NCBI GenBank assembly: GCA_934636825.1
Contig: CAKUBG010000001.1
Coordinates: 256,080-320,079, forward strand
DNA: 64,000 bases
Direction of reading: 5' to 3'
Source: an uncultured bacterium
GTDB taxonomy: Bacteria > Vulcanimicrobiota > Xenobia > Xenobiales > Xenobiaceae
Both the position numbers and the translations under genes were made by a program. Under the pieces are notes generated by a model. That model was not told the origin of the DNA, did no database searches, and was given only the letters and a program-made list of their open reading frames with translations. Shown piece by piece: positions 6,330-64,000 of this stretch (position 1 is its first letter; each line of letters opens with the position of its first letter).

Positions 6330-6375
6330 AAAAATGATTTAACTATTTTTTACTATTTTGTCATGCTGAATTGAG

Positions 6376-6430: not shown

Positions 6431-6502
6431 TCGCGCTGTATAGGTAGTCCGACTCAAAAATCTAATTTTCGTGAATCAGACTCACCACATCTATGTATAT
6501 TG

Positions 6503-9712: not shown

Positions 9713-9730
9713 TCAGTAATCTCTCCTAAC
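8416..9730. repeat. Direct repeat copy B (100% identical to 4893-6207)
   Basis: See copy A. Confidence 0.85.
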
Positions 9731-9797
9731 CTTTCAAAGCAAAAAAAGATGACTGACGCACTGCGCTAAGCGACCTTTTTCCGCCTTTATTATTTCT

Positions 9798-9859
9798 TTT
9801 ATCAACCATTATTTCCGCTTAATCTAGTGTAAAAGTCACGTTAACATTTATTTAACATT
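9798..9859 (-). promoter_or_regulatory. Conserved promoter module of paralog 3
   Basis: - sense: GTTAAATAAATGTTAAC (9841-9859), TAGATTA (9820-9826), 15 nt, TGATAAA (9798-9804). Leader hairpin followed by U7. Confidence 0.5.
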
Positions 9860-9865
9860 GTATAT

Positions 9866-9905
9866 AAAAAAAATAAGCAGCCTTCCAAGCATGGAGGCTG
9901 CTTAT
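9866..9905 (-). terminator. Rho-independent terminator downstream of paralog 4
   Basis: AAGCAGCC(t)TCCA pairs with TGGAGGCTGCTT. A9 on the + strand gives a U-run on the - strand after the stop at 9942. Confidence 0.6.
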
Positions 9906-9941
9906 AAAGTGTTTATTAAATATCAGAGCTGCAGTTGTACT

Positions 9942-21096: not shown

Positions 21097-21213
21097 GTCT
21101 ATACCCTTCCTTGCTGTATAAAGTTATAACTTTTTGTTGTAAAATTCTCGATTTCAGGCAGAAGCGCCTTTTCTTTCTGTATTTTAGAATACAGCTCGGA
21201 AGAAATATTTAGC

Positions 21214-24200: not shown

Positions 24201-27200
24201 CATAAATGCGCCCGTCTCTATAGTCGGCCGTTACGCCCAATCCCTTGGCCGTATACAACTGGCCATTTTCTCCACTCTTAACTGTGCCCATTCTAAAATC
24301 AGGGAAGTAAAGACTTACGGGAACTGATCCCCAAGTAACGTCCTTACCCTCCATGGCAAAAATCGCTTGTACTGCTTTAAAAGACGGATCATCAGATTCA
24401 ACGCATAAAGCTAAATCGACATTGCCATGTAAATCCGAAAGAGCGGGATCGAAGTAGGAGAGAGAATCTAAAGCGATATCTTTGGCATAAAGTTTGCTCT
24501 CCAAACGGCCTGAAGAACTGCGCCAGCCGAATCCTTGGACAAGAAAGTTGCCAGAAAGCAAGTTCAAATCCGAAAAAATCAACTTGTTGCTGTCCCTACT
24601 GACTTTAGCGGAAAGTCTATCAATAGGAATCAAACTATTGGCTAAGAGCAAATTACCATCATGGAAATACATGGAACCTTCCATAGACAAGGTATCCAAA
24701 AGACCACGCTTGGCGTCAAAAGAGACATCAAGTTCATCGGTACCTAACCAACCGCTAAGCCTTTGCCTTTGTCCCTCCAAACTTGGCAACAAAGCCATAA
24801 CGTGGTTACTATTCCAATCATTAGCTTTAATATTTAGGGTTACTTGGCCATCATTGATGCGTCCTTTAGCTTGCAATAAACCTGAAGGCACAGCCTCAGA
24901 ATCATAATTTGCCAAATGGCCGTCAGCTTGGAAAAGACGCTCGTCTCTAGGTGAAGACGACACTAAAAGGCGCTCAAAATTAATCGCTCCCATAGCAGCT
25001 TTGCCTTTAGCTTTAGGATCAAAAGCTACTTCCGAAGATAAAGAAGCCGCTCCAGAGAAAACGCGACTATTATCGGCACTACCCGCAGTAAACCAAGGAA
25101 TATAGGCCCAAGTGCCGGGTAAAATTTTCGGCACTCCGTGTTCGGAACCGATCTTAGCATAAAGCTTAGCTTGGCCGCCGGTAATATTGGCCTTATCTAA
25201 CAAATCGGCTGCCTGAGCCAGCCAGTTTTGTTCGTGTAACCAAGCGATATCTATATCTGTAGCTTCGGCTGCTAGCTGGTAACTGAGAGGAGTACCCAAC
25301 ATAATGTCGCCTTCTATTTTTACCAGACCTATTTTAGGCAACCAGGAATAAAGCAAGCCATTTTGTTGCAATGGGCGAGCCATATCCGGCCCCAAGAAGG
25401 CATAGGCGCTTCCCTCCAAGTGAGGAATAGCTTCCCAACCGGAACGGGGCCAATAATTCCATGCCAAAAGGTTGTCATGCAAACTCAGACAACCGTTTTT
25501 TAAAGCTCCGCTACCGGCCAGCCATAAAGTGTGCTGATCGACAAATTTGACCGGCGAACCGCTTATAGCTGTAAAGTAGCTAAAGGCCAAATCTTTAGGC
25601 TGCCCCCAAGCTCCGAAACGGCCAGTCAAACGCCCCTCTAGCGCCAAATCTTGAGTGAGGCGGCGGCCATCTAAAGCTAAATCTCTGGCCCAGCCGACAA
25701 AGCCAAGTCCTTGTTGGCCCACGAAGCCTTGCGCAGCAGCGGCATAAGTACTGGGATCTTCGAAGGGACTGAACCCGGGAGCTACAGTGTAAGCCAAACC
25801 CAATCTTTGCATAACTGCCTGAGAGTCGGCTTCGTTGGCTTTAATTGATAAATTTAAATCATCAATTTTTTCTGCAGCCACACCAGCCGAAGAAGCCAAA
25901 AGCGTGTTGTTTTGCTTGGCCAACGGCGCAAGCGCAGGCACAGGTGTAGGCTCCGGACTAATTTCCACACCCACTTGAGATGAATTGGCACAGGAAGCAC
26001 TATTTTCAACAGCAATATTTTCCGTAGCCTCAGTAGCTGCCACAGCCGTTGTGTTGGCCGCCACCTCTTGTAGTGAAGCTTGGGGGCCAGTTTGTCCTTC
26101 GACGTAAAGGCTAATCCAATTGTTACGATCGGCTCCGTTGGCAAACCAGCTAGCTCCCATATCCCCTACCCCATTAAGCTTCAAAGGAATATCATATTTG
26201 ACAATATCAGCGAAAGGAGCAATATTTACATCTCGGGCCAGCATGCTTACACTGGAAGTGCCACCTTTTAAACCGATCCAACCGCTGGCAAAAATATTGC
26301 CTCCAGCCGCCTGTCCAGTCATTTGGGGGAGATAAACATTTAAGCGATCTAAGCCAATTGCCCCATGCAAATTGTTTATTTGTAAGGAGCCTAAATTTAA
26401 ATTGGTAGATTGACTGTAAGCACAAACGCTTAAACTGTTTAAATCGGTGGGTACGCCCATAACCTGAGCGCTACCGCTGACGGTTCCGTTAACTGAGCCT
26501 ATGGAGGGCACATTTATGGAGGGCAAAGACAAATTGTCAGTTTGCACAGAAGCGTACAAATAAGGGTGTTTGTAATTATAGCTGGCATAAGGCACACTGG
26601 CTTGGCCTAAATTCGTATAAGCTCTGACATTATTTAGACTTACGGTATCTCCCAACATCATAAATTGAGCCGAAGCCGATTCTAACATGGAAGCAGCACC
26701 GGAGAAGCCGCCTACTCCGGAACCCTCACCGTAAACAAATGGTGCGTCGGCAGTACCGACCATAGATACTTTAAACTGATCGATATGGCCACCAACTGGA
26801 CTAATACCTTGCAAAGAAAGTCCTTGACCGTCGAGATTAAAAACCAATTGAGGCTTAGCTCCTTCAAAAAGGGCATAACCGTGACCTTGAATATTCCCGC
26901 TAGCGGCCTGAGCTTTTAAATTTTCGATAGTGAGAAGCTTGTCTTTCCAGCTTATATCTATGTTAAGCTGACGTATCTCTTGATCGGCGTAAGCCAATTT
27001 TGCCGATTTTATACTACCCTTGGCTTCGGGATTGCGCAAAGCTCCGTCTACATTTAATTCAGTGCTAATCTTGCCGCTTATTGGAAATTTTAATCCCAAA
27101 GCTTTGCTCAATCTACGCAATTGCAATTCGGGGACGGTAGCGTCTAATTTAACTCGTCCTTGCCAATCTTTTATTTGGCCTGAAGGGCTCCAAATATAAA

Positions 27201-28218
27201 CTTTTCCACCGGCAGAAAGTAAAGCATCGGCAAATTGAGCCTTCAAATTTTTTATAGAAGCCAAACCGGAAATGAGATCGGCCTCCAAAACAATATTGTC
27301 GATAGGTTCTTGGCAATGCGTAACCATAAGAGAGCCGTGGTTTAGTTTTACGTAGCCTCCATAGTTGAGCTTTTCTAAAGTTTTATTCCAAGTTGAAGCC
27401 TTACAATTGACCCAAAGTTTGCTATTAAGCTGTGCTCCCAGCAAGCGAATAGTTTGAGGTAAGTGATAATATTCGCTCCAACGTGCCAAATCAATATTAG
27501 TTAAATTGAGAGCAGCATCGAAATCTGGAGCCATGTCCAGACGGATTTTACCTGCCAATTCGACTTTGCCATTTTCCGGTGCCCAAGAATTGGCTTTTTG
27601 AAGAGGCACAAAGCTGAGAATGAACTCTGCTTTATGAGTAGGTCGAGCAATAATACGAAGATTTAATTTATCTAATTGAGCGCAAAAATCACCTCGGCTC
27701 CAATCTCGGAAAAAAGCCGAGCCGTTGTCTAAACTGACAGTTCCTTCATAGCGACAAAAATATTGCTCCCAAGGCCAACGCTCCTTGTCTTTTTTTGGCT
27801 TAGTTGACTTTAGCTGAGCAAAATTAAAATAGCCGTTTTTATCTATTTCCGGGGCTAAACTTAAATTGTGCAAACGTAAGTCGCCCAAAACAGCCATGTA
27901 ATCCAAACGTCCTAAGCCTCTAAGCCAATGGAAATCAAGTTCTGCTCTTTCCAAATCGGCTAGAGACTCTCCATCGTCAGATTTTAAAGAAACCCCCTCC
28001 AAAACTAAAGACTTTCTACTAAATTCGGCTCTTTTCAGTTTGACTTGCCCGGTAAAACTATCATTAAGGATACTAAGACCATATTGAGCCAAAGAATCAG
28101 TCGATTGAGAAAGACACAAATAAAAAAAGACTGCCAGACATAGCAAAAAAGCGGCTAAAGCAGCCGCAACCACGCCCCCGACTTTTAATATATGGCTTGT
28201 TAGAGAAAGCTTAGTCAA
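21214..28218 (-). CDS. tamB: TamB/AsmA-like translocation and assembly module protein (2334 aa)
   Basis: N-terminal signal anchor, a huge beta-rich body, and a DUF490-like C-terminus ending '...RLGFDQDGEVRPWFQGFWEF'. Confidence 0.55.
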   Translation of the reverse strand: MTKLSLTSHILKVGGVVAAALAAFLLCLAVFFYLCLSQSTDSLAQYGLSILNDSFTGQVKLKRAEFSRKSLVLEGVSLKSDDGESLADLERAELDFHWLRGLGRLDYMAVLGDLRLHNLSLAPEIDKNGYFNFAQLKSTKPKKDKERWPWEQYFCRYEGTVSLDNGSAFFRDWSRGDFCAQLDKLNLRIIARPTHKAEFILSFVPLQKANSWAPENGKVELAGKIRLDMAPDFDAALNLTNIDLARWSEYYHLPQTIRLLGAQLNSKLWVNCKASTWNKTLEKLNYGGYVKLNHGSLMVTHCQEPIDNIVLEADLISGLASIKNLKAQFADALLSAGGKVYIWSPSGQIKDWQGRVKLDATVPELQLRRLSKALGLKFPISGKISTELNVDGALRNPEAKGSIKSAKLAYADQEIRQLNIDISWKDKLLTIENLKAQAASGNIQGHGYALFEGAKPQLVFNLDGQGLSLQGISPVGGHIDQFKVSMVGTADAPFVYGEGSGVGGFSGAASMLESASAQFMMLGDTVSLNNVRAYTNLGQASVPYASYNYKHPYLYASVQTDNLSLPSINVPSIGSVNGTVSGSAQVMGVPTDLNSLSVCAYSQSTNLNLGSLQINNLHGAIGLDRLNVYLPQMTGQAAGGNIFASGWIGLKGGTSSVSMLARDVNIAPFADIVKYDIPLKLNGVGDMGASWFANGADRNNWISLYVEGQTGPQASLQEVAANTTAVAATEATENIAVENSASCANSSQVGVEISPEPTPVPALAPLAKQNNTLLASSAGVAAEKIDDLNLSIKANEADSQAVMQRLGLAYTVAPGFSPFEDPSTYAAAAQGFVGQQGLGFVGWARDLALDGRRLTQDLALEGRLTGRFGAWGQPKDLAFSYFTAISGSPVKFVDQHTLWLAGSGALKNGCLSLHDNLLAWNYWPRSGWEAIPHLEGSAYAFLGPDMARPLQQNGLLYSWLPKIGLVKIEGDIMLGTPLSYQLAAEATDIDIAWLHEQNWLAQAADLLDKANITGGQAKLYAKIGSEHGVPKILPGTWAYIPWFTAGSADNSRVFSGAASLSSEVAFDPKAKGKAAMGAINFERLLVSSSPRDERLFQADGHLANYDSEAVPSGLLQAKGRINDGQVTLNIKANDWNSNHVMALLPSLEGQRQRLSGWLGTDELDVSFDAKRGLLDTLSMEGSMYFHDGNLLLANSLIPIDRLSAKVSRDSNKLIFSDLNLLSGNFLVQGFGWRSSSGRLESKLYAKDIALDSLSYFDPALSDLHGNVDLALCVESDDPSFKAVQAIFAMEGKDVTWGSVPVSLYFPDFRMGTVKSGENGQLYTAKGLGVTADYRDGRIYVNIPSEAVKFSAYRFFEKALLPKEVADRLTEPEDENQKGFRPHPALDNEGNIIGARLDKDPVSFAISGDFNFSPSLGSEGGNWFLGPDGPDFGNDKQPLTFSLQNFQGNMARAALGLPMSQRRFSFSGELGLKGQWYRGHLVEAPAGSLCYNFNISQLAFGSVTVDETENIEKSGEKQEETEKKQPHRVLWRGLTLKQNLKGGYSREEKAGRFIIEPFEFVPERHTFGPEGKDDEEAASGSVSGSANLALTRLPWRSSTGVSSESKNKADSNNKTTASIDANELHLNISQVPISELGSFLFPSLNSGFVENFVLNASGPIYSPVFNMLFNVTNGKAGNLDLASITGAVSGRRDPQSKVYQVKLGTSENTFRNERIKNIVSQGLQELSQSEDYTDGIKIYFGKEKKNDRVFSISGTLPYEVTRVRPKNNGSLVPFWEGTSVSLDGDIDIDADLKDKDLGLLSSVVSDVADSAGNMLGNLHIGGTLMRPEIIGELKVIDGQVNHKKAGTISSLNIEANFSEILDSELKNKYIEQKKHNYIAEHGFGAVLAEHLSRKAQENGQVQNSEIEPKNTDSKEKQSAEKGKFEPLDFSDARFNRFELRKFTGMLGDKPFVVQGRADMDGFTPMDVDLSLSGEQLPLRWGSLFEGRADVDLHLSKAEVSGQELASWKESLRTRAAARPKFGIYSATSKAQVIPIPKMYYLSGKISVPRGDVSVDVSTLTSTSGVSFDWSKLPVDYRIDVNIGEDVWMHALGCRIRAAGELAVVPDKATGKPVIDGEVDLSRGLLAIPLYDLKFKVRSGKAVFNHSQMPELRDVTADAQVDDYEVTAFVSGAYPNIKVEFVSNPPLAEKEIQNLLALGGFAKYTPSNSGAQMVHAPGNTTGSQAVSTDLNLSTSGISMLSKIISSPLTQEISRMLFLSDFSVDITSPHGYSFKIAKSIDSKDRFLFTLTRSLNTQTGQDESVYGIEWRFKNNMLFRLGFDQDGEVRPWFQGFWEF

Positions 28219-45053: not shown

Positions 45054-45905
45054 TTACTGTACCCTAATAGGCCCTTGTACACGGCCTTCACGGAATTGAA
45101 CAACAAAGGGATCGTTAGTAGATTGGAACTCTTCTGGAGTACCCATCCAAATAAACTCACCTTTATTGAGCATAGCTATCTGATGAGCGACCATTAAAGC
45201 GCCACGGATATCGTGAGTAACCACCACCGAAGTAGCTTTTAAACGGCGTTGCAAATCGCAAATAAGTTCATTGATAACCATCGATAAAATTGGATCCAAC
45301 CCGGTAGTAGGCTCATCATACAAAATGACATCCGGATCGGTAGCAATAGTTCTGGCTAGACTGGCTCTCTTTTGCATACCTCCAGAAAGTTGATTTGGAT
45401 AAAGATGAGCCATTCCCTGAAGATCGACAATAGCCAACTTTTCGGCCACAATGCGTTGAATTTCTTGTTCGGAAAGACGTGTATGTTCGCGCAAACCAAA
45501 AGCCACATTTTCACCGATACTAAGTGAATCAAATAGAGCGGGCATTTGGAAAACCATACCTATGCGCTTGCGAAGCTTATCAAATTCTTTAGGTTCGAGT
45601 TTTAAAACATTCTGACCGTCTATGTATATTTCACCTTCATCAGGTTTTTGCAAACCGACTAGGCAGCGCAAAGTTGTACTTTTACCTACACCTGACAATC
45701 CCATAATGGCCAAAGTATGGCCTCGCGGCACATCAAAGCTGACATTGCGTAAAATAGCCCGACCACCAAAAGAAACGGAAACATTGCGCACAGAAATGGC
45801 CGGATCAGACATAGGACGACGCGGCCCCAGAACGCTATTCTCCATAGCAGGCTCGTTGGCAGTAGCCTGACTTTTTCCCGTACTGTTTTTTGCTAGATCT
45901 ACCAT
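45054..45905 (-). CDS. ABC transporter ATP-binding protein, MlaF-like
   Basis: Walker A 'GLSGVGKST', 'LSGGMQKR', Walker B 'ILYDEPTTGLD'. Confidence 0.85.
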   Translation of the reverse strand: MVDLAKNSTGKSQATANEPAMENSVLGPRRPMSDPAISVRNVSVSFGGRAILRNVSFDVPRGHTLAIMGLSGVGKSTTLRCLVGLQKPDEGEIYIDGQNVLKLEPKEFDKLRKRIGMVFQMPALFDSLSIGENVAFGLREHTRLSEQEIQRIVAEKLAIVDLQGMAHLYPNQLSGGMQKRASLARTIATDPDVILYDEPTTGLDPILSMVINELICDLQRRLKATSVVVTHDIRGALMVAHQIAMLNKGEFIWMGTPEEFQSTNDPFVVQFREGRVQGPIRVQ

Positions 45906-45930
45906 ACTAATTTTTCTTTCCCGATAATTG

Positions 45931-46767
45931 TTAGCTCACAGGGAAGAGCCACAACGACATAAGGTAGTTGCTTATGAAAATAAATATAGTGGCATAAACC
46001 ACACTAGAAGTAGTAGAAGCGCCTACTCCCGCTGCCCCTCGGCCGGTATTAAGCCCTTGATAACAAGCAATCAGCGCTACCTCAAATCCAAAAACTACGC
46101 CTTTAAGTAAGCCATAACTCACGTCGGAAAGAACCAGAAGGCGTTGAATGGAGTCCCAAAACACTTCGTAAGGGATATTAGCCGATTGATAAGCAATTAC
46201 AGCCCCACCCAAAGTTCCAAAAGTTAAAGAGAAAAGTGTAAGGATAGGCATCATAGTCACTAAAGCGATAAGCCTAGGCACAACTAAATAGCGAATAGGA
46301 CTGACAGCCATACACTTTAAAGCGGAAATTTGCTCGGTAACTTTCATAGTGCCTATCTCAGCCGCAATAGCCGAACCGGCCCGACCGGCCACAACCACAG
46401 CGGTGAGCATGGGAGCAAGCTCACGAGCCATAGCAATAGCTACACCGCCGCCAACTACGCTGACAACTCCGTATTGCACAGCGATATGAGCTAATTGCAA
46501 AGAGATAACCATACCGGCTGAAGTAGTAGTTAAAATTACAATAACTAAGGAATCTACTCCCAGGAAAGCCATCTGCTGCACAGCAAGTCCAAACCTAACA
46601 GCTCCCTTGGCTATGCCGGACAAGCATTCCATCAGCAGCATAAATAAGGCCCCGAGATAATCTAAAACTCCCAGAACCGTTCTGCCAATGTACTCAAAAA
46701 ATAATACCATCGTCACTTTCCCAATTGACGCAGTCGGGCGCCGTAGGTGACAAGAACAACGCAACAC
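45931..46767 (-). CDS. ABC transporter permease, MlaE-like
   Basis: 278 aa with 5-6 TM helices, adjacent to mlaF/mce. Confidence 0.75.
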   Translation of the reverse strand: MLRCSCHLRRPTASIGKVTMVLFFEYIGRTVLGVLDYLGALFMLLMECLSGIAKGAVRFGLAVQQMAFLGVDSLVIVILTTTSAGMVISLQLAHIAVQYGVVSVVGGGVAIAMARELAPMLTAVVVAGRAGSAIAAEIGTMKVTEQISALKCMAVSPIRYLVVPRLIALVTMMPILTLFSLTFGTLGGAVIAYQSANIPYEVFWDSIQRLLVLSDVSYGLLKGVVFGFEVALIACYQGLNTGRGAAGVGASTTSSVVYATIFIFISNYLMSLWLFPVS

Positions 46768-46953
46768 CCGCCTAATTTCAAACGCCTTCCTGTTTCACAG
46801 CCTAAGGCCTTCTCCCTGCCGAATTTTTGGCCATAGACCGTTTTTGAGAAATAGAAGAATAAGATACTGTCACTCACGATAAAAAAAAGGGCCAATGCGT
46901 AGAAACGAACACACTGACCCTCTTATGAAATTTTTTCTGACAATCGTTACTTT

Positions 46954-53096: not shown

Positions 53097-53118
53097 GCAG
53101 ATTCTGACTGACATATAA

Positions 53119-53166
53119 AAAGAAGCTCGCTTCCTGATCATGGGGGCGAGCTTCTTTATTTATTTT
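53119..53166 (+). terminator. Rho-independent terminator
   Basis: GAAGCTCGC (53122-53130) pairs with GCGAGCTTC (53146-53154), followed by a T-rich run. Confidence 0.65.
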
Positions 53167-53261
53167 ACGTTGTCAACTAGCGTCAGACAATCAGTCCATG
53201 TCCGACACAATGTCAGTAAAAATGTCTGACTTGTCTTACTGACATAATGTCACAAAAAGAA

Positions 53262-54434
53262 CTAAACTTGCGGAGCTGCGGGTAAATCAGTTGCAACCTG
53301 ACCTGAAGTCAGAAAATACTGTATATCCGCAGCTAAATAATCGGCTATATCAGGACCGCTGACTCTCATAGAGACAACTAAATTGTCACTAGCAAAGACA
53401 ACACAATCTTGACTGTCAGTCTTACGTGTCAGTATTTCTTCCAAATTGTCCAAAATAAAGCTTCTGGTGTAATAAGCCAGTCCCCAAAGTTCTTTGTGAA
53501 TATTAATTCTTTGCTCGCTAATTTCTATAACGCTCTTGTAGCCAAATTCGACAATACAAAGCACAATTATTAGAACGGCTGCCCCAATAAAGAATGACCA
53601 ATCACCAGTCGTCATAGATTCACTAAAAAACGAAACGTAATGGTTTTTGATTTTCCAAAAAGGAGTGATTCCCACAGCAATTACAATAAAAATCAGCCAA
53701 ATAAGTTCTGTAGGAATACCCGAAGCCATAAGTCCCCAGCTATAGCGCCTTCCCAAGCCAAAATTAACATCTTCAACTTTTATGGGGCAGCCTTCAGGGC
53801 GTCTAGGATGAGGAGAAGCTAAAATAGGATATTTTTTCACACGCAAGCAGTAAGGCAAGTCGACATCAGTATAAGGTATGGTAACTGAACGAACTGCGTC
53901 AAACACTACCAATAAATCGCAGCGCATTGATTTTGCCAAAAATTCAGCTAAGGCTTTACTCTCTTGCAAGCGTCCCACTCTAAGATCGAGCAAAAATTGG
54001 CAACGCCCGTCCATGAGAGTTATTTCCCAACTATCCAGAGCTATTTTTCCATTATTTACCTCAGAAACACTAAGTCTTATTTTCGGAGCTTCTCCGTAGG
54101 TGTAAGTTATTTCTTGAGCTAACAAACCATCCTTAATAGAAATGCTGCCTCCCTTGCCATTATTAAAAACTTTAACTTGCTTGTGAGAAAAGAAAATGGC
54201 AAAAATACCGACAGCAACTATAAGTAAAGAAAAAATCAAACCCGGAAATAAATTAGGCTTACCTATTCGCAACACCAGAGCGCTGAACATATAATAAAGC
54301 GGAACGCCGCCTATTAAGCCGGTAAAAATCAAAAAGGCTCCAATATTATAGCCGGAAGTACTGTTTATAATAAAAACATCGGCTTGTGAGTCGACAGTCT
54401 TCGCTATAGTTCTATAAGTTTTTCTCTCTGACAC
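53262..54434 (-). CDS. Hypothetical polytopic membrane protein
   Basis: ORF with multiple hydrophobic helices; no recognisable motif. Confidence 0.4.
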   Translation of the reverse strand: MSERKTYRTIAKTVDSQADVFIINSTSGYNIGAFLIFTGLIGGVPLYYMFSALVLRIGKPNLFPGLIFSLLIVAVGIFAIFFSHKQVKVFNNGKGGSISIKDGLLAQEITYTYGEAPKIRLSVSEVNNGKIALDSWEITLMDGRCQFLLDLRVGRLQESKALAEFLAKSMRCDLLVVFDAVRSVTIPYTDVDLPYCLRVKKYPILASPHPRRPEGCPIKVEDVNFGLGRRYSWGLMASGIPTELIWLIFIVIAVGITPFWKIKNHYVSFFSESMTTGDWSFFIGAAVLIIVLCIVEFGYKSVIEISEQRINIHKELWGLAYYTRSFILDNLEEILTRKTDSQDCVVFASDNLVVSMRVSGPDIADYLAADIQYFLTSGQVATDLPAAPQV

Positions 54435-54650: not shown

Positions 54651-55685
54651 ATGGCGTTATCTATTGGCATTACCGGTCTGTCTCAATCCGGTAAATCAAC
54701 TTTATTCAAATCACTCACTTGTCTATCCGAGTCCGACGTTTCGGGACGTAAGCAACCTTTAGCCAGGGCAGCTGTACCAGACGAAAGGTTGCAGAGGCTG
54801 TCTGACATTTTCAAGCCGAAGAAAACTACTCCGGCTACAGTAGACTTTTTGGATATGCCCGGCGGCGGAAGTTCCGGATTAGGTTCCCAGGCAGTAGCGG
54901 AAATTCGTACCTCCACCTTGTTACTGGAAGTAGTGCGGTGCTTCAACCATCCTTATTTGGAAGGCGTAGATCCTTTGGCAGATGTCGACTCTTTCGAGAC
55001 AGAACTTCTCTTAGCCGACCTTAAAGTAGTTGAAGGCAAACTGGAGCGAGCCAAAAAACTCGATCCCAAAGAGCGTGCCTTGTTGGAATCTTTGGCTAAA
55101 CCCTTAAACGACGGTGATATTTCTGCTGTGCCTCAGTTTGACGAAGAAGAGAAAAAGATTCTCTCCGGCTTAGGTTTACTTTGCATCAAACCTCGTATTG
55201 TCGTTGCCAACATCTCCGAAAATGATATAGAAGACGGCGGCCCCCACTATAAAGCCCTTAAAGAGCTTTGCGATAAACAAGGAACCCCTTGTTTAGCCAT
55301 ATGCGCCGAGATCGAAGCTCAACTGGCCGATCTTTCTGCAGATGAGCGCGTTGAGTTTATGGCCGATTTGGGCATAAACGAAAGTGGCTTGGACAGATTG
55401 ATAAGTATTTGCTACAAGAAACTCGGTTTACAAACTTTCTTTACTGCTGGCGAAGACGAATGTCGTGCCTGGACTACTAAAGTAGGTGCCAAAGCTCCAG
55501 AAGCAGCCGGAGAGATTCATAGCGATTTACAAAGAGGCTTTATCAGAGCCGAAGTTATCGACTATCCCACCTTTATTGAATGCGGCTCGCTTAATGTAGC
55601 CAAAGAAAAAGGCTTACTGCGAGTAGAAGGCAAAGACTACGTCGTAAAAGATGGCGATATTTTGAATATTCGTTTCAATGTTTAG
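54651..55685 (+). CDS. ychF: YchF/Obg-family ribosome-binding ATPase (divergent)
   Basis: 'GITGLSQSGKSTLFKSLT' P-loop. C-terminal TGS-like 'GFIRAEVIDYPTF'. Confidence 0.65.
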   Translation: MALSIGITGLSQSGKSTLFKSLTCLSESDVSGRKQPLARAAVPDERLQRLSDIFKPKKTTPATVDFLDMPGGGSSGLGSQAVAEIRTSTLLLEVVRCFNHPYLEGVDPLADVDSFETELLLADLKVVEGKLERAKKLDPKERALLESLAKPLNDGDISAVPQFDEEEKKILSGLGLLCIKPRIVVANISENDIEDGGPHYKALKELCDKQGTPCLAICAEIEAQLADLSADERVEFMADLGINESGLDRLISICYKKLGLQTFFTAGEDECRAWTTKVGAKAPEAAGEIHSDLQRGFIRAEVIDYPTFIECGSLNVAKEKGLLRVEGKDYVVKDGDILNIRFNV

Positions 55686-58608: not shown

Positions 58609-58624
58609 TGTTTCACGTGAAACA
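58609..58624. promoter_or_regulatory. parS: parS centromere site (perfect 16-bp palindrome TGTTTCACGTGAAACA)
   Basis: Exact match to the ParB-binding parS consensus; parB lies 2.6 kb away. Confidence 0.85.
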
Positions 58625-58640
58625 TACCCCATATATTTTA

Positions 58641-58656
58641 TGTTTCACGTGAAACA
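58641..58656. promoter_or_regulatory. parS: parS centromere site, second copy
   Basis: Identical 16-mer, 32 bp from the first. Confidence 0.85.
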
Positions 58657-58827: not shown

Positions 58828-59952
58828 TTAGTTGACTTTAATCAACTCATAATCCATAGAGCCTATGCCAATTTTTTGAGCATGCTCGACACAACTGCGC
58901 CAATTGGTTACTGGAGCTGTTTTATAAAAGTGATCGCCACCTTCAACTTTGCTTTCAGCCAAAACGCTTCCCGGAATAGGTTGCTGTTTATTGACCATAT
59001 CTGCGCAAGCTACATCTATAGCCACAGGGTCAGCAGAGGCAAACATACCTACATTAGGAACAATAGGTAAAGGATTGTCAGCGTGACAGTCACAAGTGGG
59101 AGTAATATCTACTGCCAAAGAAATATGGAAGTGAGGTCGTTTATCAATAACCGCTTTGCTATATTCAGCAATCTTGCGATTCATAATATCACTGGAATCG
59201 TAGCCATTAGCTTCAATAGCGTCGCGAGGGCAAATAGCCAAACAGCGACCGCAACCGACACACTTGTCATGGTCAATAAACATAACTTTGCCTTTGAGGG
59301 TCGGAGCATTGTGAGCACAAATTTTCTGACAGCGACGGCACCCAACACATAAACTCTCATTTACAGTAGGTTTGCCGGCACAATGCATATCCATTTTGCC
59401 AGCTCTGGAGCCTGAGCCCATGCCGATATTTTTCAGGGCGCCACCGAAACCAGCCATTTCATGTCCCTTAAAGTGGCTTAAGGAAATAAAAACGTCGGCA
59501 TCCATAATAGCGCGGCCAATTTTAGCCTTTTTAATATATTCTCCGCCTTCTACCGGAACTTCAACTTCATCATTACCTTTGAGACCATCGGCTATAATAT
59601 TATGTACTCCGGTAGTAATAACGCTATATCCGTTAAAATTGGCCGTATCCAAATGATCGAGTGCATTTTTGCGTCCACCAACATATAAAGTGTTGCAATC
59701 AGTCAAAAAAGGACGTCCGCCCAATTCTTTAATATAATCACATAAAACTCTGGCATAGTTGGGACGCAGAGCCGCTAAATTTCCGAACTCACCAAAGTGA
59801 GTTTTTATAGCTACAAAATGATCTTTTAAAGGAAGATCTTTTAAGCCTGATTTCTCTAAAAGGTGACGGAATTTTACCAATAAAGGTCTTTCCATACTGA
59901 CAGACATGTCAGTAAAATAAACTTTAGATTTAGCCACAGTAACAATCCTCAC
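58828..59952 (-). CDS. DUF362-domain protein with a 4Fe-4S dicluster ferredoxin motif
   Basis: 'KVYFTDM' N-terminus; 'CVGCRRCQKIC' and 'CVGCGRCLAICP'. Confidence 0.7.
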   Translation of the reverse strand: MRIVTVAKSKVYFTDMSVSMERPLLVKFRHLLEKSGLKDLPLKDHFVAIKTHFGEFGNLAALRPNYARVLCDYIKELGGRPFLTDCNTLYVGGRKNALDHLDTANFNGYSVITTGVHNIIADGLKGNDEVEVPVEGGEYIKKAKIGRAIMDADVFISLSHFKGHEMAGFGGALKNIGMGSGSRAGKMDMHCAGKPTVNESLCVGCRRCQKICAHNAPTLKGKVMFIDHDKCVGCGRCLAICPRDAIEANGYDSSDIMNRKIAEYSKAVIDKRPHFHISLAVDITPTCDCHADNPLPIVPNVGMFASADPVAIDVACADMVNKQQPIPGSVLAESKVEGGDHFYKTAPVTNWRSCVEHAQKIGIGSMDYELIKVN

Positions 59953-60466
59953 TAAAGTGTAATTTTTATAGAAGTGAATCCACCTATTTAATACAATTTG
60001 GTAAAAGATAATTCTTTCCCTTGATAAGATTGTCCATATTTTGCCAATCGGAGCAAAAAAAGTTCTATTTATTCACAATATTCACAAGTTTTACACAGGC
60101 AGTGCATATATATTTTTATATTTATCTGAGTAGTGCACTTTTCCACAACTTTATACACATTTTTAGGTAATTATCTGTAGAAAATTTACCATACAAAAAT
60201 TTTTTAGTTAAAAATAGCACAGTATAATTAGAATGTTTTTAGACTTATAAACGCTATAATAAGTATATATATAGAAAATTTATGGATATTTTATGTTATT
60301 TGTCAATATTTAGGATTGTGCACTTTAAAAATAGCCAAAGTTTATTACATTATTTTTGTAAGTTATCAACAATGTTAACAGTTTTTCCACAATACATTGC
60401 ACTATTTTTGACAAAAAAAAGCACAGCCATTAACTTTGGCTGTGCTTACTGTGGAAAAAGTTGTCT
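59953..60466. promoter_or_regulatory. AT-rich region with DnaA-box-like 9-mers (candidate oriC)
   Basis: TTTTCCACA at 60139-60147 and 60384-60392; TGTGGAAAA (reverse complement) at 60451-60459; TTATTCACA at 60069-60077. Flanked by rsmG/parB, with parS 1.3 kb away. Confidence 0.45.
60412..60448 (-). terminator. Rho-independent terminator of rsmG
   Basis: 10-bp stem AAGCACAGCC/GGCTGTGCTT. A8 on the + strand gives a U-run on the - strand. Confidence 0.7.
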
Positions 60467-61189
60467 TTAAAGTGGACTATGTTGAGGGATTCCCACTCGT
60501 CTGGGATAAGATTTTGGCGTAGGCTTAATTTTTCTTATAACACATATATGGCGCTCACGTCCGTAAAGTGTATAAGAAAATACTTCATCAACTTTGGCAT
60601 GAAGCTTATCTAAAGCGTTAGCCGATTGCTCAATCTCTTCTTGAAATTTAACGCCTTTATAAGCTAAAAGACAACCATTCACTTTTAAAAGCGGAACGGC
60701 CAATTCAATCAAAGAAGGCAAGGCGGAAAGAGCTTTAGCAGTAACAAAATCAAGTTTACCACGCCAGTTATCACTGTGAGCAACATCTTCTATGCGCATA
60801 GGCAGAGCGTGAGCTTTGGCCTGAATGCCTAAATTAAGGATCTGTTCTTCAATCCAGGCTGACTTTCTGTTCTGAGACTCAACCATAATGAAAAATGATT
60901 CAGGACGTACTATAGCTAAAGGTATACCAGGCACACCAGCGCCGGAACCGATATCAGCAATACGCTGTTCTTCGCCTATATAAGGCATAGCTCCTAAGGA
61001 ATCAACTATCAGCTCCCTAACTATATCTTCAGGACTTGTTAAAGCCGTAAGTCCCCTCTCGCTGCCATGCTCAAGCAAATTTTGTGCGAATTCGGCTAAG
61101 CGATCAAGCTCCTCTTCAGTAGCTTTTATTAAGGGATTATCTATAGACTGTATGCCCTGTCGGATAAGCTCTTTCATTAAAATCTCCAT
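60467..61189 (-). CDS. rsmG: 16S rRNA (guanine527-N7)-methyltransferase
   Basis: 'DIGSGAGVPGIPLAI' SAM motif and GidB-like N-terminus. Confidence 0.85.
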   Translation of the reverse strand: MEILMKELIRQGIQSIDNPLIKATEEELDRLAEFAQNLLEHGSERGLTALTSPEDIVRELIVDSLGAMPYIGEEQRIADIGSGAGVPGIPLAIVRPESFFIMVESQNRKSAWIEEQILNLGIQAKAHALPMRIEDVAHSDNWRGKLDFVTAKALSALPSLIELAVPLLKVNGCLLAYKGVKFQEEIEQSANALDKLHAKVDEVFSYTLYGRERHICVIRKIKPTPKSYPRRVGIPQHSPL

Positions 61190-61249: not shown

Positions 61250-62164
61250 CTAAGATTTCATCAGGTAAATAAAGCATTCGACAATTCTTTCCAGTTCTTC
61301 CTGATTTTTAAAGTGAAATTCCAATTTGCCTTTACCATCAGAACGGGAATTTAAACGTATGTCAGCGCCAAAGCTATAGCGAAGTTTCTCTAAAAGATCT
61401 CTCCATTCAGGAGAAAGAGGCTCTTTGACGGTGACAGTTTTCTTGTCAGAATGACTTTCTGCCGACTCTCCAGCGTCATTGCCAAGCCCTTTGAGCGTAT
61501 TTACATACTCTTCAGTTTTGCGTACCGAAAGCTGCTCAGCTTTAGCATGTTCCCACGCTTCTATCTGGCGAACTTCGTCTTCAAGTGACAAAATAGCCCT
61601 GGCATGGCCGCTGGAAAGTATATTATTTTGCAAATCTTCCTTTATGGGAGTCGGCAAACTTAAAAGACGCAAAGAATTAGTAATATAAGGACGGCTTTTG
61701 CCAATGCGCTCAGCTAATTTATAATGAGAGAACTTAAATTCTCCAATCAAAAAAGAAAGTGCCTGAGCCTCTTCAATGGGATTTAAGTCCTGGCGTTGCA
61801 AATTTTCAACTAAAGCCAGCTCCAACATATCTTTATTAGTTAAATTGCGTACTATAGCCGGAATAGTTTTACGACCAATCATTTTGGCCGCCCTAAATCT
61901 GCGTTCACCTACAACAAGGCGATATCCCTCAGGCAACTTGGTAACAATGACAGGCTGAATAATACCATTAGCCTTTATAGAATCAGCTAACTCTTGCAAA
62001 GCGGATTCTTCAAAAACACGCCTTGGTTGCAGCGGATTTTGCAAAATATCGTCTATAGAAATTTCCTTAACTTCTAAATCCAAATCATTTTGCGAAGAAG
62101 AATCGACTTCTGCCTGGCGTTCAGCAGTCAATTTTGCGGAAGTAGAATTGTCCAAACCAATCAA
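61250..62164 (-). CDS. parB: Chromosome partitioning protein ParB/Spo0J
   Basis: 'GERRFRAAKMIG' ParB box; 'IQPVIV'; HTH region. Confidence 0.85.
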   Translation of the reverse strand: MIGLDNSTSAKLTAERQAEVDSSSQNDLDLEVKEISIDDILQNPLQPRRVFEESALQELADSIKANGIIQPVIVTKLPEGYRLVVGERRFRAAKMIGRKTIPAIVRNLTNKDMLELALVENLQRQDLNPIEEAQALSFLIGEFKFSHYKLAERIGKSRPYITNSLRLLSLPTPIKEDLQNNILSSGHARAILSLEDEVRQIEAWEHAKAEQLSVRKTEEYVNTLKGLGNDAGESAESHSDKKTVTVKEPLSPEWRDLLEKLRYSFGADIRLNSRSDGKGKLEFHFKNQEELERIVECFIYLMKS

Positions 62165-62618
62165 GGACCTTTCGTCTGCTAAAAACTGAACTAACCACGA
62201 CTTAAAAGTCGTAAGTTTCCCGATAAAAAAGTCTATTAAGACACAACATTACCAGGCTATCCCCGCAGTTCTTGCGGTTCCAAAATTCCTCTTGCATTCT
62301 TCCCTCTGTTTTTATTACCTGCCCAAGCTAAAAGAGTGAATAGATGAATGCATCCAAAGCTTATACCTATTGCCAGAGCTTCTAATTACGCATTTAAACT
62401 ATATTAATTATTACATTTTTATATACAAAATTAATTATATTCACTCGATAATTGGCTATAACCAGTATTAAATCAAAAAAATAGACAATTCTAAATAACT
62501 ACATAATAGTAAAATACAATGTCTAATTTTAATAAAAACTAACTTAGTGAAAGTAAATCCAATAACAGTTAGTTCTAACTTGCCTACTTATCGTATTTTT
62601 TTAACCTTATCAAGCCTA

Positions 62619-62906
62619 TTTGACATGACTGACACAATGTCAGACATGCATATAATATTACTGACAAGAAAAATAAAATAGCTAGTGTACATTATATTGT
62701 ATATTATTAAAAATAATAAACTATATATATTATTATCATTATAATGTCAGATATATTGTCAGTAATAATATGTATTCATACTGACATTTCATCGGACATT
62801 ACTGACTATAAAATTTTACATTACAGACACATTACTGACTAAAGATAAAAAATGTCAGTACCATGTCTGTAATGCTCCTCCCCTACCCTACACAATGTCT
62901 GACATT
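62619..62906. repeat. Dense array of CTGACA/TGTCAG-core motifs (~13 copies, both orientations)
   Basis: Examples: CATGACTGACACAATGTCAGACATG (near-palindrome), ACATTACTGACTA x2, TGTCAGatatatTGTCAG. It lies in the parB/lipoprotein divergent region. Confidence 0.7.
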
Positions 62907-63021
62907 ATAAATGATATTGCTTAAATCCAAAGCAAACCACAAAAGCCCATTTGAAAGGGATCTAATCAAAGGCTCATGAAAGTTTGGGTTCGTTAAATTT
63001 TATTCGAGGTTAGAAACTTTC

Positions 63022-63888
63022 ATGTCCTTAAAAAGAACTTTTTTCTTGTCAGCGACAGCCCTCTTGTGTCTGTCTTTAAACGCTTGCGGCCCCAACAATA
63101 TGTCTGACACAAAAACTCCTCAAAACGAAACTTCACCGATAGCTCAAAGCACTCCTGAGCAAGCTCCGGCTGAAAAGGCAAAAGTGGATGAAAAATTATC
63201 TAAAGCTATAGCCCATCAACCCAATGCTGACAAAAAAGAATTGACAAAGTCAGGTTATTACCGACATCAAGGTCAGAAAATTACTGAAGGTGTCAGTAAT
63301 GGTGACGAATGGCAATATATTGTCATGAATGATGACGCTTATAGAACTTTTGTCAATAATAATCCCAGCTGGTTCTCCCAAGACTTTAACTCTAAAGCTT
63401 GGGGAATTAGGCAAGCTCCCATGGGAAATATCATAAAAACGAGCAATTCTGAACTCGATCCTGCTACTCAAATCAGTTGGAATGACAATAGCAACAACTT
63501 GCTTTTGCGTCGTGTCTTCAATGTCAATGACCCGACCCTTTACAAAAACACGACCATGAATGTTTTTTATAACAATGACATGGATGTATATGTCAACAAT
63601 ATATTGGTCTATTCCGACAAAGGCAAAACTAAAAAAGCTACTGACACTTATACATCTGTCAAATTTGACAAAGCTCCTATTATTGTTAAGGGTGACAATA
63701 TAATTTCTATTCACCTTAGAGGTACTGACAAAAATAAAGAATTTGACATGTCACTTACAAAAGCTGAGCCCCAAAAAGTTCAACCTGGCCCACCTAGCAA
63801 AGATGACAAAAATTCAAAAGATCAAAAGGCCCAAGTAAACACAAAGTCTAAAGAGACAACTCCTGACAAGAGTGCAACTAAGAAATAG
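63022..63888 (+). CDS. Putative D/K/T-rich lipoprotein
   Basis: Signal plus 'LSLNAC' lipobox-like. No recognisable domain. The ORF contains an unusual density of TGACA. Confidence 0.5.
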   Translation: MSLKRTFFLSATALLCLSLNACGPNNMSDTKTPQNETSPIAQSTPEQAPAEKAKVDEKLSKAIAHQPNADKKELTKSGYYRHQGQKITEGVSNGDEWQYIVMNDDAYRTFVNNNPSWFSQDFNSKAWGIRQAPMGNIIKTSNSELDPATQISWNDNSNNLLLRRVFNVNDPTLYKNTTMNVFYNNDMDVYVNNILVYSDKGKTKKATDTYTSVKFDKAPIIVKGDNIISIHLRGTDKNKEFDMSLTKAEPQKVQPGPPSKDDKNSKDQKAQVNTKSKETTPDKSATKK

Positions 63889-63907
63889 TCATTGTTGTTA
63901 CTGACAT

Positions 63908-63978
63908 AAAAAATCCGGCCTTATTGATATGCATTCAAAATTATGAGTACATATCAGGGCCGGATTTTTTATTTAACA
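63908..63978 (+). terminator. Two-tier hairpin terminator
   Basis: Outer stem ATCCGGCC/GGCCGGAT and inner stem TGATATG/CATATCA, followed by T6. Confidence 0.55.
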
Positions 63979-64000
63979 TTATACTGACACATACGCTGTC

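Follow-up and report, generated by a model that had tools for sequence, protein, structure and literature searches.

A helically phased array of a previously undescribed 11-bp dyad motif in the gap from parB to a lipoprotein gene of an uncultured gut bacterium (class Xenobia)

Results

The window, by which we mean the whole 64-kb stretch of DNA that was analysed, comes from an uncultured gut bacterium of Xenobia, a gut-associated class of the Vulcanimicrobiota (formerly Eremiobacterota/UBP9). Its locus is labelled W and the loci of relatives carry L-numbers; W inside a motif string is the IUPAC symbol. An array of about 280 bp lies between parB (61250-62164, minus strand, and then rsmG at 60467-61189) and a gene on the plus strand (63022-63888) that codes for a lipoprotein with a signal peptide and the lipobox LSLNAC. 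The leader and promoter region of parB (62165-62600) is conserved, holds no sites and separates parB from the array, and the coding sequences of parB and rsmG are free of sites as well. The lipoprotein gene starts 122 bp past the last array site and has seven CTGACA cores within it. Its product, which belongs to no Pfam or NCBIfam family, was found only in Xenobia; a look-up of the exact sequence from the window returned no record, and the predicted structure is of low confidence (pLDDT 51). The idea that the gene sits on a xenogeneic island was dropped because its GC content is 0.38, like that of its neighbours.

The window also holds an origin region, which the first-pass annotation of this DNA had overlooked. 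Two perfect canonical parS sites (TGTTTCACGTGAAACA) are at 58609-58624 and 58641-58656 and are also found in relatives, and six 9-mers with at most one mismatch to TTATCCACA form a DnaA-box cluster at 60069-60458, between the DUF362 gene and rsmG. Neither is part of the motif system described below, and no motif site overlaps parS or DnaA boxes. When parS was considered as the array motif, its 16-bp palindrome TGTTNCACGTGAAACA matched only at 58609 and 58641 and nowhere in the array. The relatives have the same DnaA-box cluster and a second one upstream of dnaA. In the lineage of the window, dnaA is about 7 kb beyond the window end, where GC skew places oriC; across the array the skew has one sign, and it does not flatten before dnaA is reached. 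The DnaA protein of the lineage carries RDHTTV, which we take to be the canonical DnaA recognition motif. No candidate regulator gene was found in the 64 kb or the examined flanks, where ParB was the sole DNA-binding protein found, no parA or parM was found in the 64 kb, and no methyltransferase gene was found near the array. The ParB proteins of W, Bruticola and L281 are without the N-terminal LG(R/K)GL ParA-activating motif and have no adjacent parA, while relatives with parA keep this motif in ParB; the lineage appears to have lost ParA. A reading of the array as Noc sites was rejected because ParB scores below the NCBIfam cut-off for Noc, and its helix-turn-helix is presumably parS-type and not Noc-type, judging by the published specificity residues.

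Eight exact copies of CTGACA/TGTCAG were found in 62619-62906, at 62629, 62638, 62661, 62745, 62757, 62781, 62853, and 62899. The first-pass annotation had counted about 13 copies, a number that is reached only when one-mismatch variants are included, namely, CTGACT and CAGACA, each twice, and the loose half-sites TTGACAT and GGACAT; its estimate of fewer than 0.2 copies by chance holds, since the computed expectation is about 0.1. Dyad sites were defined by a central W and halves GACA/GACA or GACA/GTAA with at most one mismatch, and their coordinates were converted from the reverse complement. Against the same expectation of about 0.1 for 62619-62906, the array has 12 dyad sites, with centres at 62630, 62642, 62662, 62749, 62761, 62782, 62803, 62825, 62836, 62857, 62868, and 62900. 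Their consensus is ATGTC-W-GACAT, in which ATTAC is frequent as one half, and the position matrix from 77 oriented sites of five genomes reads A-T-[G/T]-[T/A]-C-W-G-A-C-A-T, GACA being followed by T in 40, A in 21, C in 14, and G in 2 of them. A full-text literature search with the motif strings returned no paper, and this 11-bp site is previously undescribed.

The array is built of two blocks. Block 1 (62620-62667) has dyads centred at 62630 (ATGACTGACAC), 62642 (ATGTCAGACAT, a perfect 11-bp palindrome) and 62662 (ATTACTGACAA), and the loose half-site TTGACAT at 62620-62626. It includes the 15-bp element TGACACAATGTCAGA (62630-62644), a palindrome of the form TGACA-N3-TGTCA, and the 25-bp near-palindrome CATGACTGACACAATGTCAGACATG reported earlier was found at 62624-62648. 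A sigma-70-like promoter match, CTGACA-N16-TATAAT (11 of 12 positions; 62629-62656, plus strand), points at the lipoprotein gene, with the perfect dyad in its spacer and the next site over the predicted start. Between the blocks is an AT-rich spacer of 76 bp (62668-62743), and the site centres that flank it are 87 bp apart, about eight helical turns. Block 2 (62744-62906) has nine dyads with centres from 62749 to 62900 and successive spacings of 12, 21, 21, 22, 11, 21, 11, and 32 bp. A C-rich block, CTCCTCCCCTACC (62876-62888), between the last two sites consists of invariant alignment columns; it was found in L282 and is degenerate in L281. The sites are phased, as had been proposed, but the 12-bp interval then proposed is one member of an 11/21/32 series. 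The repeated unit is a dyad of 11 bp, and the lattice has a step of 10.8 bp: centres are spaced by 11-12, 20-22 or 32 bp, and the phasing in W has R=0.95-0.96 at 10.8 bp (Monte-Carlo P<0.0005). The 10.8-bp period places the sites on one face of the helix. Pairs in the same and in opposite orientation share one lattice only when they are referred to the central W, which argues for a dyad-centred binding unit. This 10.8-bp period recurs in four relatives, among them L002, L004 and L005 (P=0.017-0.029 over all periods, 0.0004-0.0014 at 10.8 bp); L001 and L282 have only weak global phasing, and L281 has none.

Other kinds of feature were sought in the gap between parB and the lipoprotein gene. Rfam gave nothing at the gathering threshold, and the permissive matches were to plant and animal microRNA families and are produced by the palindromes. 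The array region folds far better than shuffled controls on the two strands (z = -7.3 and -6.5), but folding on both strands is a trivial effect of the inverted motif and there is no covariation, and an RNA-structure reading was therefore rejected. No conserved small ORF was found when a ribbon-helix-helix-type binder was sought in the gap: the reading frame of a 31-codon ORF in the leader of parB is broken in L001 and L004, and W has no counterpart of a 48-aa ORF called in L282.

Away from the main array, the clusters that the first pass had reported were found again at 53105-53252, 53407-53445 and 63898-63990. The first is a satellite array between convergent genes, with one site (53109) before a terminator hairpin and five to six after it (53185, ~53203, 53215, 53227, 53240, and ~53250); its palindrome TGACATAATGTCA (53240-53252) is a second copy of the TGACA-N3-TGTCA type. 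Equivalent arrays are at the same position in L201, L002, L005 and the distant L319/L320, and since they are syntenic while their sequences do not align, turnover of sites is indicated. The two cores at 53407-53445 are within the 3' end of a gene for a 390-aa membrane protein, and a one-mismatch site at 54429 overlaps the start of this divergent gene. The lipoprotein gene converges with mnmG, which was identified in relatives, and the gap between the two has a long hairpin (63913-63965), a bidirectional terminator, with the two sites of 63898-63990 on either side of it (centres 63902 and 63985). Single elements lie in coding sequences: an isolated perfect dyad, CTGTCTGACAT (54798-54808), is inside ychF about 150 bp from its start, and an inverted pair, ATACTGACAGACATGTCAGTAA (59894-59915), falls within the DUF362 gene (codons 13-20), some 150 bp away from the DnaA-box cluster. 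The DUF362 coding sequence has four cores against 1.06 expected (P=0.008), and relatives have one to three relaxed sites in the kilobase corresponding to the pair. The lipoprotein gene, where an excess of the core had been noticed, has seven against 1.06 after synonymous-codon shuffling (P<0.002), and this excess was repeated in L002, L281 and L282. With codon-preserving shuffles the core is enriched 5-8 fold in the coding sequences of three adjacent genes (lipoprotein, mnmG and mnmE) in three lineages. Intragenic cores are conserved two to three times more often than other hexamers, and copies turn over while their density is maintained. Purifying selection acts on the copies within genes.

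Window-wide counts are 62 for the hexamer (21.9 ± 4.2 expected) and 34 for TTACTGACA with at most one mismatch (11.9 ± 3.2 expected). The first-pass annotation had named uniform abundance of the hexamer as the mark of a compositional quirk; the distribution in the window is strongly non-uniform. Strict sites, T(GT|TA)CWGACA, number 13 where 2.1 are expected window-wide, and all 13 are at or beyond 53215, in the last ~11 kb; none is in the first 53 kb, and no cluster was found in 1-53000. The 29 genes of 289-49982 together have 27 cores, which agrees with the expected 22.4 ± 4.1, and 75 loci from other phyla have 0.014 strict sites per kb. Site density is about 40 per kb upstream of the lipoprotein gene, 8-10 within it, 4-5 in mnmG and mnmE and 0-1 beyond, so that the lipoprotein gene is the centre of the site cloud.

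The array is in the same place in L001-L005, L201, L282-L285 and the divergent L281. In a three-way alignment of W, L282 and L281, whose lipoprotein is only 41% identical, the 15-bp element is invariant and is the most conserved sequence of the intergenic region. Its 13-bp core, TGACACAATGTCA, is identical in W, L001, L002, L201, L281 and L282-L285, but not in L004 or L005, and the other array sites turn over between lineages. A weaker form of the promoter match, CTGACA-N17-TAAATA, is present in L001 and L282; L002 lacks the -10 element and has lost the AT-rich spacer by deletion. From the array end to the lipoprotein start codon there are 84-122 bp in the three lineages measured (W, L002 and L281), and the array is at least 430 bp from parB. 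L322, which has the canonical order mnmG-rsmG-parA-parB, has neither the lipoprotein gene nor the array. The motif is likewise missing from the relatives L315/L316 and L324, and Bruticola has it, as do the window, L281 and L319. In the distant L319, arrays of the same motif occupy three intergenic gaps by envelope genes (for an HExxH lipoprotein, a membrane protein and SLT), and no parS and no DnaA-box cluster were found in the 21.6 kb covered. Since L319 has the arrays and its ParB retains the ParA motif, the motif system predates, and is independent of, the loss of ParA. All lineages share only CWGACAT, an element that is short and asymmetric. A metagenome scan with ParB returned one further close relative only, L201. 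In viral contigs, the matches listed for TGTCWGACA pairs included unrelated phage tandem iterons (L131, L185 and L125), and the 16-mer CTGACACAATGTCAGA gave 29 chance matches, the two densest of which (L312 and L291) look like phage coding repeats; these scans show that motif-pair patterns are too unspecific for metagenome scanning.

Discussion

The non-uniform distribution, the helical phasing, the conservation across lineages with turnover of sites and the purifying selection on intragenic copies argue for a site-specific array of some factor and against a compositional quirk. This much was common to the three options of the first-pass annotation, an iteron-like array, a nucleoid-organising array and the operator set of an uncharacterised factor, and it stands, but the reading as replication iterons does not. 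Our leading proposal, which we make tentatively, is that the array may well be a cooperative operator/silencer platform of a putative lineage-specific dimeric protein that would control the adjacent lipoprotein gene and use auxiliary sites for looping. The binder would dock with dyad symmetry, probably as a dimer, about the W of TCWGA; it would have one strong half-site, GACAT, and tolerate change in the other half, which reads ATGTC or ATTAC in the lineage of the window and is down to ..TC in a distant relative. With centres on the 10.8-bp lattice at one, two or three turns, whatever the orientation of the sites, bound units would be on one face of the DNA and could touch each other, and a cooperative filament or wrapped complex over about 280 bp may result, in which TGACACAATGTCAGA would be the nucleating element of highest affinity. 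The most likely job of such a complex would be transcriptional repression or silencing of the lipoprotein gene, whose promoter must then fall within the array or at its edge, and the sparser sites in the body of this gene, in mnmG and mnmE and in nearby convergent gaps would be auxiliary sites for looping or bridging.

The operator proposal is supported by the near-consensus promoter match that overlaps the invariant element and faces the lipoprotein gene, by the position of the array close to the start of this gene and far from parB, by the site cloud with this gene at its centre, by L322, which is without both gene and array, and by the distant L319, whose arrays adjoin envelope genes. It is weakened because two conserved clusters are between convergent genes, where no promoter is expected, and because the core is enriched in the housekeeping genes mnmG and mnmE, up to 4.5 kb off, which an ordinary operator does not need. 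In addition, no regulator gene was found in the 64 kb or the flanks, the promoter match is not kept in L002, and the phasing fades in L001, L282 and L281.

Several known systems resemble the array in part. Multi-operator repressors such as those of the DeoR/GlpR type and the CI wheel of coliphage 186 have phased as well as distant or intragenic operators. The Xenobia array likewise has phased dyads at a predicted promoter with auxiliary sites hundreds of bp off, some of them intragenic, and wrapping or looping is implied. The half-site TGTCAGAA of L281 resembles the E. coli DeoR operator half-site, TGTTAGAA, which is a lead only. The Xenobia sites, however, are far more numerous (12 and about 30 auxiliary), also cluster in convergent gaps and have no cognate regulator gene that we could find. 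The centromere or operator arrays of plasmids are bound by small dimeric proteins, as in parC-ParR of R1 (ten iterons of 11 bp, in two blocks on either side of a promoter), the omega heptads of pSM19035 and the tetramer boxes of ParG of TP228. Phased short repeats in blocks, the mark of this type, are what was found here: many short repeats, direct and inverted, at about one turn or less, in two blocks around an AT-rich core with a promoter-like element, with a geometry that implies cooperative coating of one face and an array that would double as a likely operator. However, the Xenobia array is chromosomal, its motif is unrelated and its sites reach into neighbouring coding sequences, and the gene content that defines such systems, an adjacent ribbon-helix-helix gene and a ParM or ParA motor, is absent. 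Pho boxes, bound by PhoB, are CTGTCAT direct repeats with 11-bp spacing in groups of two to six sites. TGTCA with about six AT-rich bp every 11 bp is also seen here, for example in TGTCAGTAATATGTCTGTAAT of L002 and TGTCAGTAATGTGTCTGTAAT of W, but the Xenobia array has twelve sites in both orientations, perfect palindromes and a dyad-centred lattice and not head-to-tail monomers. WhiA and EbfC/YbaB, conserved nucleoid-associated regulators of Gram-positive-type lineages, have short targets that contain GACA or are odd-length palindromes. The WhiA core is GACAC/GAYACRCY (PMC11701221, PMC3781837), and WhiA regulates partition and division genes in Streptomyces. EbfC/YbaB targets GTnAC (PMC2665219), and EbfC acts at operators of Borrelia lipoprotein genes. 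Since C follows GACA in only 14 of the 77 sites and T or A in 61, the sites do not have the WhiA core, and GTnAC is absent from TGTCWGACA.

That all strict sites seen in the lineage lie within about 14 kb together with parS, parB and a DnaA-box cluster would be explained equally well or better by a role at the level of the chromosome. The array could be part of an origin-domain organiser or a secondary centromere-like mark, in which a putative protein on about 40-50 sites of the origin-proximal 14 kb would form a higher-order complex that could serve to anchor the origin region, to compact it, or to delimit the ParB-parS domain; we consider this possible but unlikely. Sliding ParB could meet a roadblock on either side of parS, since one dense array is at about -5.3 kb and the other at +4.0 kb, and the zone that holds every strict site shares the parS pair, a DnaA-box cluster and parB, with dnaA and its own boxes about 7 kb on. 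Turnover of the coding-sequence copies at maintained, 5-8 fold enriched density is the pattern expected if regional density is selected. Arrays are also found in convergent gaps that have no promoter, and the ParB of W, Bruticola and L281 is of the kind that has neither the ParA-activating motif nor an adjacent parA. RacA of Bacillus subtilis is a precedent: its origin-proximal anchoring sites, ram, are GC-rich 14-bp palindromes over hundreds of kb. Here too there is a short palindromic origin-proximal motif distinct from parS and DnaA boxes, with many intragenic copies and a binder that would be encoded elsewhere, but the Xenobia site is an AT-flanked 11-bp dyad and the arrays are packed into about 14 kb. 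Against an origin-domain role, L319 has arrays without nearby origin features and a ParB that keeps the ParA motif, no site overlaps parS or DnaA boxes, parB and rsmG are site-free, and the restriction to the origin region is that seen in about 75 kb of one replichore. In its most specific form, which is more doubtful, ParA-less gut Xenobia may use a separate sequence-specific protein that coats some 40-50 CWGACAT sites around the origin, with the phased arrays on either side of the parS pair as boundaries or anchors of the ParB-parS/oriC domain, as a second, ParA-independent organising layer.

We think it very unlikely that the array is an epigenetic switch or sequestration device in which CWGAC(A) would be a methyltransferase target whose clustered, phased copies are read by a methylation-sensitive protein. 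Precedents are SeqA, which requires pairs of sites spaced by one to three helical turns and acts on clustered GATC in E. coli, in oriC and in the promoter of dnaA, and the phase-variation switches of surface proteins by Dam with Lrp or OxyR. The dense cluster of a short motif near the origin has same-face pairs at just this spacing, the only element in all lineages is short and asymmetric, and the product of the neighbouring gene is a surface lipoprotein, and such proteins of gut bacteria are often phase-variable. On the other hand, conservation spans 11 bp including the outer A/T positions, which exceeds a typical methyltransferase target, the motif is asymmetric in many copies, the clusters are clear of DnaA boxes and no methyltransferase gene is nearby.

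A role in initiation of replication, with the sites as variant DnaA boxes or the iterons of a second initiator and the AT-rich spacer as unwinding element, is already largely refuted and we give it next to no credence. The neighbourhood of mnmG and parB is that of a classical oriC, the sites are short, asymmetric, in two orientations and about 11 bp apart next to an AT-rich stretch of 76 bp, and TTACTGACA matches TTATCCACA at six of nine positions; but no 9-mer within one mismatch of TTATCCACA is in 62165-63021, in all relatives the clusters of canonical boxes are those of 60069-60458 and of the region upstream of dnaA, DnaA has the canonical RDHTTV and there is no Rep-type gene, the spacer is deleted in L002 and GC skew shows no switch of sign at the array. 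A family of dispersed repeats (REP/BIME-like or left over from a mobile element), or a quirk of composition or codon use, would fit the copies in extragenic gaps in both orientations, often by terminators of convergent genes, and the strong folding, but this is scarcely credible because 53 kb of the window have no strict sites, the units are 11 bp on a helical lattice and not palindromes of at least 20 nt, the enrichment survives codon-preserving shuffles, the 75 loci from other phyla have 0.014 strict sites per kb, the folding is trivial, and synteny of the arrays across lineages at 39-41% protein identity argues against mobility.

Conclusions

To our knowledge, nothing is known of gene regulation or chromosome biology in Xenobia. 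The invariant 15-mer and the 280-bp phased array are a defined DNA bait for fishing out a new DNA-binding factor. If this factor is a repressor, it would identify the control of a lineage-specific surface lipoprotein in the gut, and an organiser of the origin region would be a new component of chromosome maintenance beside a ParB that has apparently lost ParA. Under either reading the origin region of these genomes is fixed by parS, two DnaA-box clusters and dnaA.

The array and its repeat unit

The array at 62619-62906 lies in the gap between parB and the lipoprotein gene (63022-63888, plus strand). The first-pass annotation had counted about 13 copies of the core CTGACA/TGTCAG in it; the array is present, but there are only 8 exact cores and about 13 is reached only with one-mismatch variants. 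The 25-bp near-palindrome that it described is at 62624-62648, and the remaining clusters that it named were all found. The hexamer has 62 copies in the window as a whole, where 21.9 +/- 4.2 would be expected. From k-mer counts, and from a position matrix built on 77 oriented copies from five orthologous arrays, the consensus is A-T-[G/T]-[T/A]-C-W-G-A-C-A-T, that is, an 11-bp dyad, ATGTC-W-GACAT, with ATTAC frequent as one half. Twelve dyad sites are in the array, centred at 62630, 62642, 62662, 62749, 62761, 62782, 62803, 62825, 62836, 62857, 62868, and 62900. The matrix does not match the sites of WhiA (GACAC/GAYACRCY) or EbfC (GTnAC), and the motif strings had no match in a literature search. 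The array matches no known RNA family, and the strong folding of both its single strands is a necessary outcome of an inverted motif.

The strict site, T(GT|TA)CWGACA, occurs at 13 distinct places in the window as against 2.1 expected under a third-order Markov model. All 13 are at or beyond 53215, and in other phyla (75 ParB loci) there are 0.014 per kb. Since strict sites are regional and rare in other phyla, the motif does not have, in the window, the uniform abundance that had been named as evidence for a compositional quirk. Separately, TGTCTGACA or GTCAGACA was found within long tandem iteron arrays, with units of 11 to ~30 bp, of unrelated phage contigs (L131, 1-160; L125, 12290-12550; L185, 1-350), close to or at the ends of the viral stretches read; the 9-mer is therefore also a recurrent iteron core of mobile elements.

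Phasing of the sites

The steps from one site centre to the next are 12, 20, 87, 12, 21, 21, 22, 11, 21, 11, and 32 bp, each a multiple of ~10.8 bp. Compared with random non-overlapping placement, this phasing is strong in the window (R=0.95, P<0.0005). The arrays of three relatives, L002, L004, and L005, have their maximum at this period too (P=0.017-0.029 with all periods considered, 0.0004-0.0014 at 10.8 bp), those of L001 and L282 are weakly phased (P ~0.03, at 10.8 bp only), and global phase is absent in the divergent L281; all these arrays are related by descent and are not independent trials. Distances between cores in the same and in opposite orientation share one lattice only when they are referred to the central W, and thus the bound unit would be centred on W, that is, dyad-symmetric.

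Conservation among relatives

The nearest relatives of the window's ParB are in gut MAGs named UBP9 and Candidatus Bruticola, which are Vulcanimicrobiota, class Xenobia. An array occupies the parB-lipoprotein gap in all relatives found with such a gene order: L001 and L201 (ParB 95% identical to that of the window), L002-L004 (92%), L005, a Bruticola (75%), L282-285 (lipoprotein 75%), and L281 (lipoprotein 41%, ParB 56%). Between lineages most sites in the array cannot be aligned. The window, L282, and L281 align without a single difference over a 15-bp element, TGACACAATGTCAGA, at 62630-62644; its 13-bp core, TGACACAATGTCA, is shared unchanged by the window, L001, L002, L201, L281, and L282-L285. 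The L281 consensus is reduced to T-CTGACA-T, the second half not being fixed. A C-rich block, CTCCTCCCCTACC, between the last two sites (62876-62888) is invariant in close relatives and recognisable in L281.

A satellite array at 53105-53252 is flanked by convergent genes for an HExxH lipoprotein and a 390-aa membrane protein. It is also present in L201, L002, L005, and the distant L319/L320 (lipoprotein 39% identical), and the satellite sequences of different lineages cannot be aligned. In L319 (17400-17700) one motif array adjoins a hydrophobic ORF of 30 codons that has a strong ribosome-binding site and GC-rich hairpins on either side. The ORF is possibly a toxin-like gene or one for a small membrane peptide.

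The origin region

At its right end the window takes in the origin region of the chromosome. In relatives that reach beyond the window end the order is lipoprotein gene, mnmG, mnmE, jag, yidC, yidD, rnpA, a gap with canonical DnaA boxes, and dnaA. GC skew has a single sign over the entire window and flattens only at dnaA, in relatives, and the genes at 289-49982 are nearly all on the minus strand. Thus oriC is most probably in the dnaA-rnpA gap, ~7 kb past the window end. Canonical DnaA boxes form two distinct clusters ~9 kb apart (window 59930-60458; L002 2520-2748; L201 2310-2598), one upstream of dnaA, outside the window, and one downstream of rsmG, with six 9-mers at 60069-60458. By GC skew the dnaA-side cluster is the better candidate for oriC; the rsmG-side cluster may be a second half of the origin, or a site that titrates DnaA or has a regulatory role. 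The array itself is neither a DnaA-box cluster, as 62165-63021 has no 9-mer with one mismatch or fewer, nor parS. Two perfect canonical parS copies, TGTTTCACGTGAAACA, are at 58609-58624 and 58641-58656, their starts 32 bp apart, in an AT-rich 780-bp gap between glgX and a DUF362 gene, and relatives have one or two copies at the equivalent position.

The minus strand carries parB (61250-62164) and, after it, rsmG (60467-61189); no parA is adjacent in this lineage. The ParB profile score is that of a generic ParB, under the Noc cut-off. The N-terminal ParA-activating motif LG(R/K)GL is absent from ParB of the window, Bruticola, and L281 (61250-62164; P0051, P0053). Both the motif and a parA-parB pair are present in more distant relatives (P0058, P0062, P0074), where the pair follows mnmG-rsmG or precedes dnaX-ybaB-recR. 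These comparisons suggest loss of ParA with local rearrangement in the clade of the window. The parB leader (62165-62345, minus strand) is strongly conserved, with an invariant GGTAATAAAAAC(A/G)GAGGGAAGAATGCA. It has two hairpins plus one hairpin followed by a T-run, and RNAalifold predicted 38 pairs, of which 4 show compensatory changes. Rfam had no match for the leader, which may be an attenuator or small RNA.

Copies inside genes

The density of relaxed sites has one and the same profile in every relative, at 0-2 per kb from dnaA to jag, 4-9 in mnmE, mnmG, and the lipoprotein gene, 11-17 in the gap with the array, 0 in parB and rsmG, ~3 at the 5' end of the DUF362 gene, and 2-5 in the satellite array. 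The excess of cores reported earlier in the lipoprotein ORF held under synonymous-codon shuffling (7 against 1.06 expected, P<0.002). In codon-preserving shuffles the core is 5-8 fold enriched in the lipoprotein gene, mnmG, and mnmE, with P from <0.002 to 0.03 in L002, L005, L282, and L281, and is not enriched in dnaA, yidC, jag, rsmG, parB, glgX, or 29 genes leftward. Regional restriction in the DNA read, rarity in other phyla, and this excess make a dispersed repeat family or codon artefact very unlikely. Motif hexamers in the three enriched genes are conserved between lineages 2-3 times as often as other hexamers (for example, 68% vs 32%, P=0.0005; 60% vs 19%, P=0.005), and toward L281 most intragenic positions have changed while density is retained. 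Selection at the DNA level thus acts on the intragenic copies, apparently more on their density than on their position.

An Mla-type operon has five cores, all CTGACA on the plus strand, within its ABC and MlaE genes or shortly beyond them (45692-46937; P ~0.03 for each gene by codon shuffle), and in the distant L319 (2208-4561) an MlaD gene contains 5 cores where 0.88 would be expected. This second envelope locus may carry a weak conserved site cloud. Elsewhere in the window, four tandem paralogous giant proteins of 814-1095 aa (289-12794) end in cell-wall hydrolase domains of the CHAP and/or glucosaminidase type; their long N-terminal regions belong to no family. A 1509-aa BspA-type leucine-rich-repeat protein adjoins a 2334-aa TamB/DUF748-like protein (16567-28218), a pair consistent with a diderm envelope.

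Possible function of the array

The array is likely to be a platform for specific binding by a protein, whatever its role. No DNA-binding protein besides ParB is encoded in the 64-kb window and the parB-lipoprotein gap has no conserved small ORF. In architecture the array is analogous to ParR-parC, omega, ParG, RacA-ram, SeqA, DeoR/GlpR, 186 CI, and Pho boxes, a likeness that does not imply membership.

Of the two functions that remain, an operator or silencer of the lipoprotein gene ranks first, as a tentative choice, and an organiser of the origin domain ranks second and is rather unlikely. For the organiser, the motif is confined to ~14 kb around parS, parB, and DnaA boxes in the DNA read (~75 kb of one replichore, along with stretches of 11-21 kb from relatives), parS is flanked by the two dense arrays, arrays are also in convergent gaps without promoters, density is selected within unrelated housekeeping genes, and ParA has apparently been lost. 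For the operator or silencer, the distant L319 lineage has arrays of the same motif next to envelope genes in a 21.6-kb stretch devoid of origin features, and a relative with the canonical mnmG-rsmG-parA-parB order is missing both the lipoprotein gene and the array. The site cloud is centred on the lipoprotein gene, and parB is at least 430 bp from the array, its own conserved leader without sites lying between.

The array ends 84-122 bp from the lipoprotein start in the window, L002, and L281, and since it abuts this gene the lipoprotein promoter would be in the array or at its edge. A near-consensus predicted promoter oriented to the gene overlaps the invariant element, but its conservation does not extend to L002. 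At 62976-62996, 46 nt upstream of the lipoprotein ATG, is a short ORF or alternative start (ATGAAAG..., with AAAGG before it); its surroundings are conserved and it is called as the gene start in L282. The lipoprotein is of no known family, is found in Xenobia only, and its predicted structure is of low confidence. Because it has a signal peptide and lipobox it is exported.
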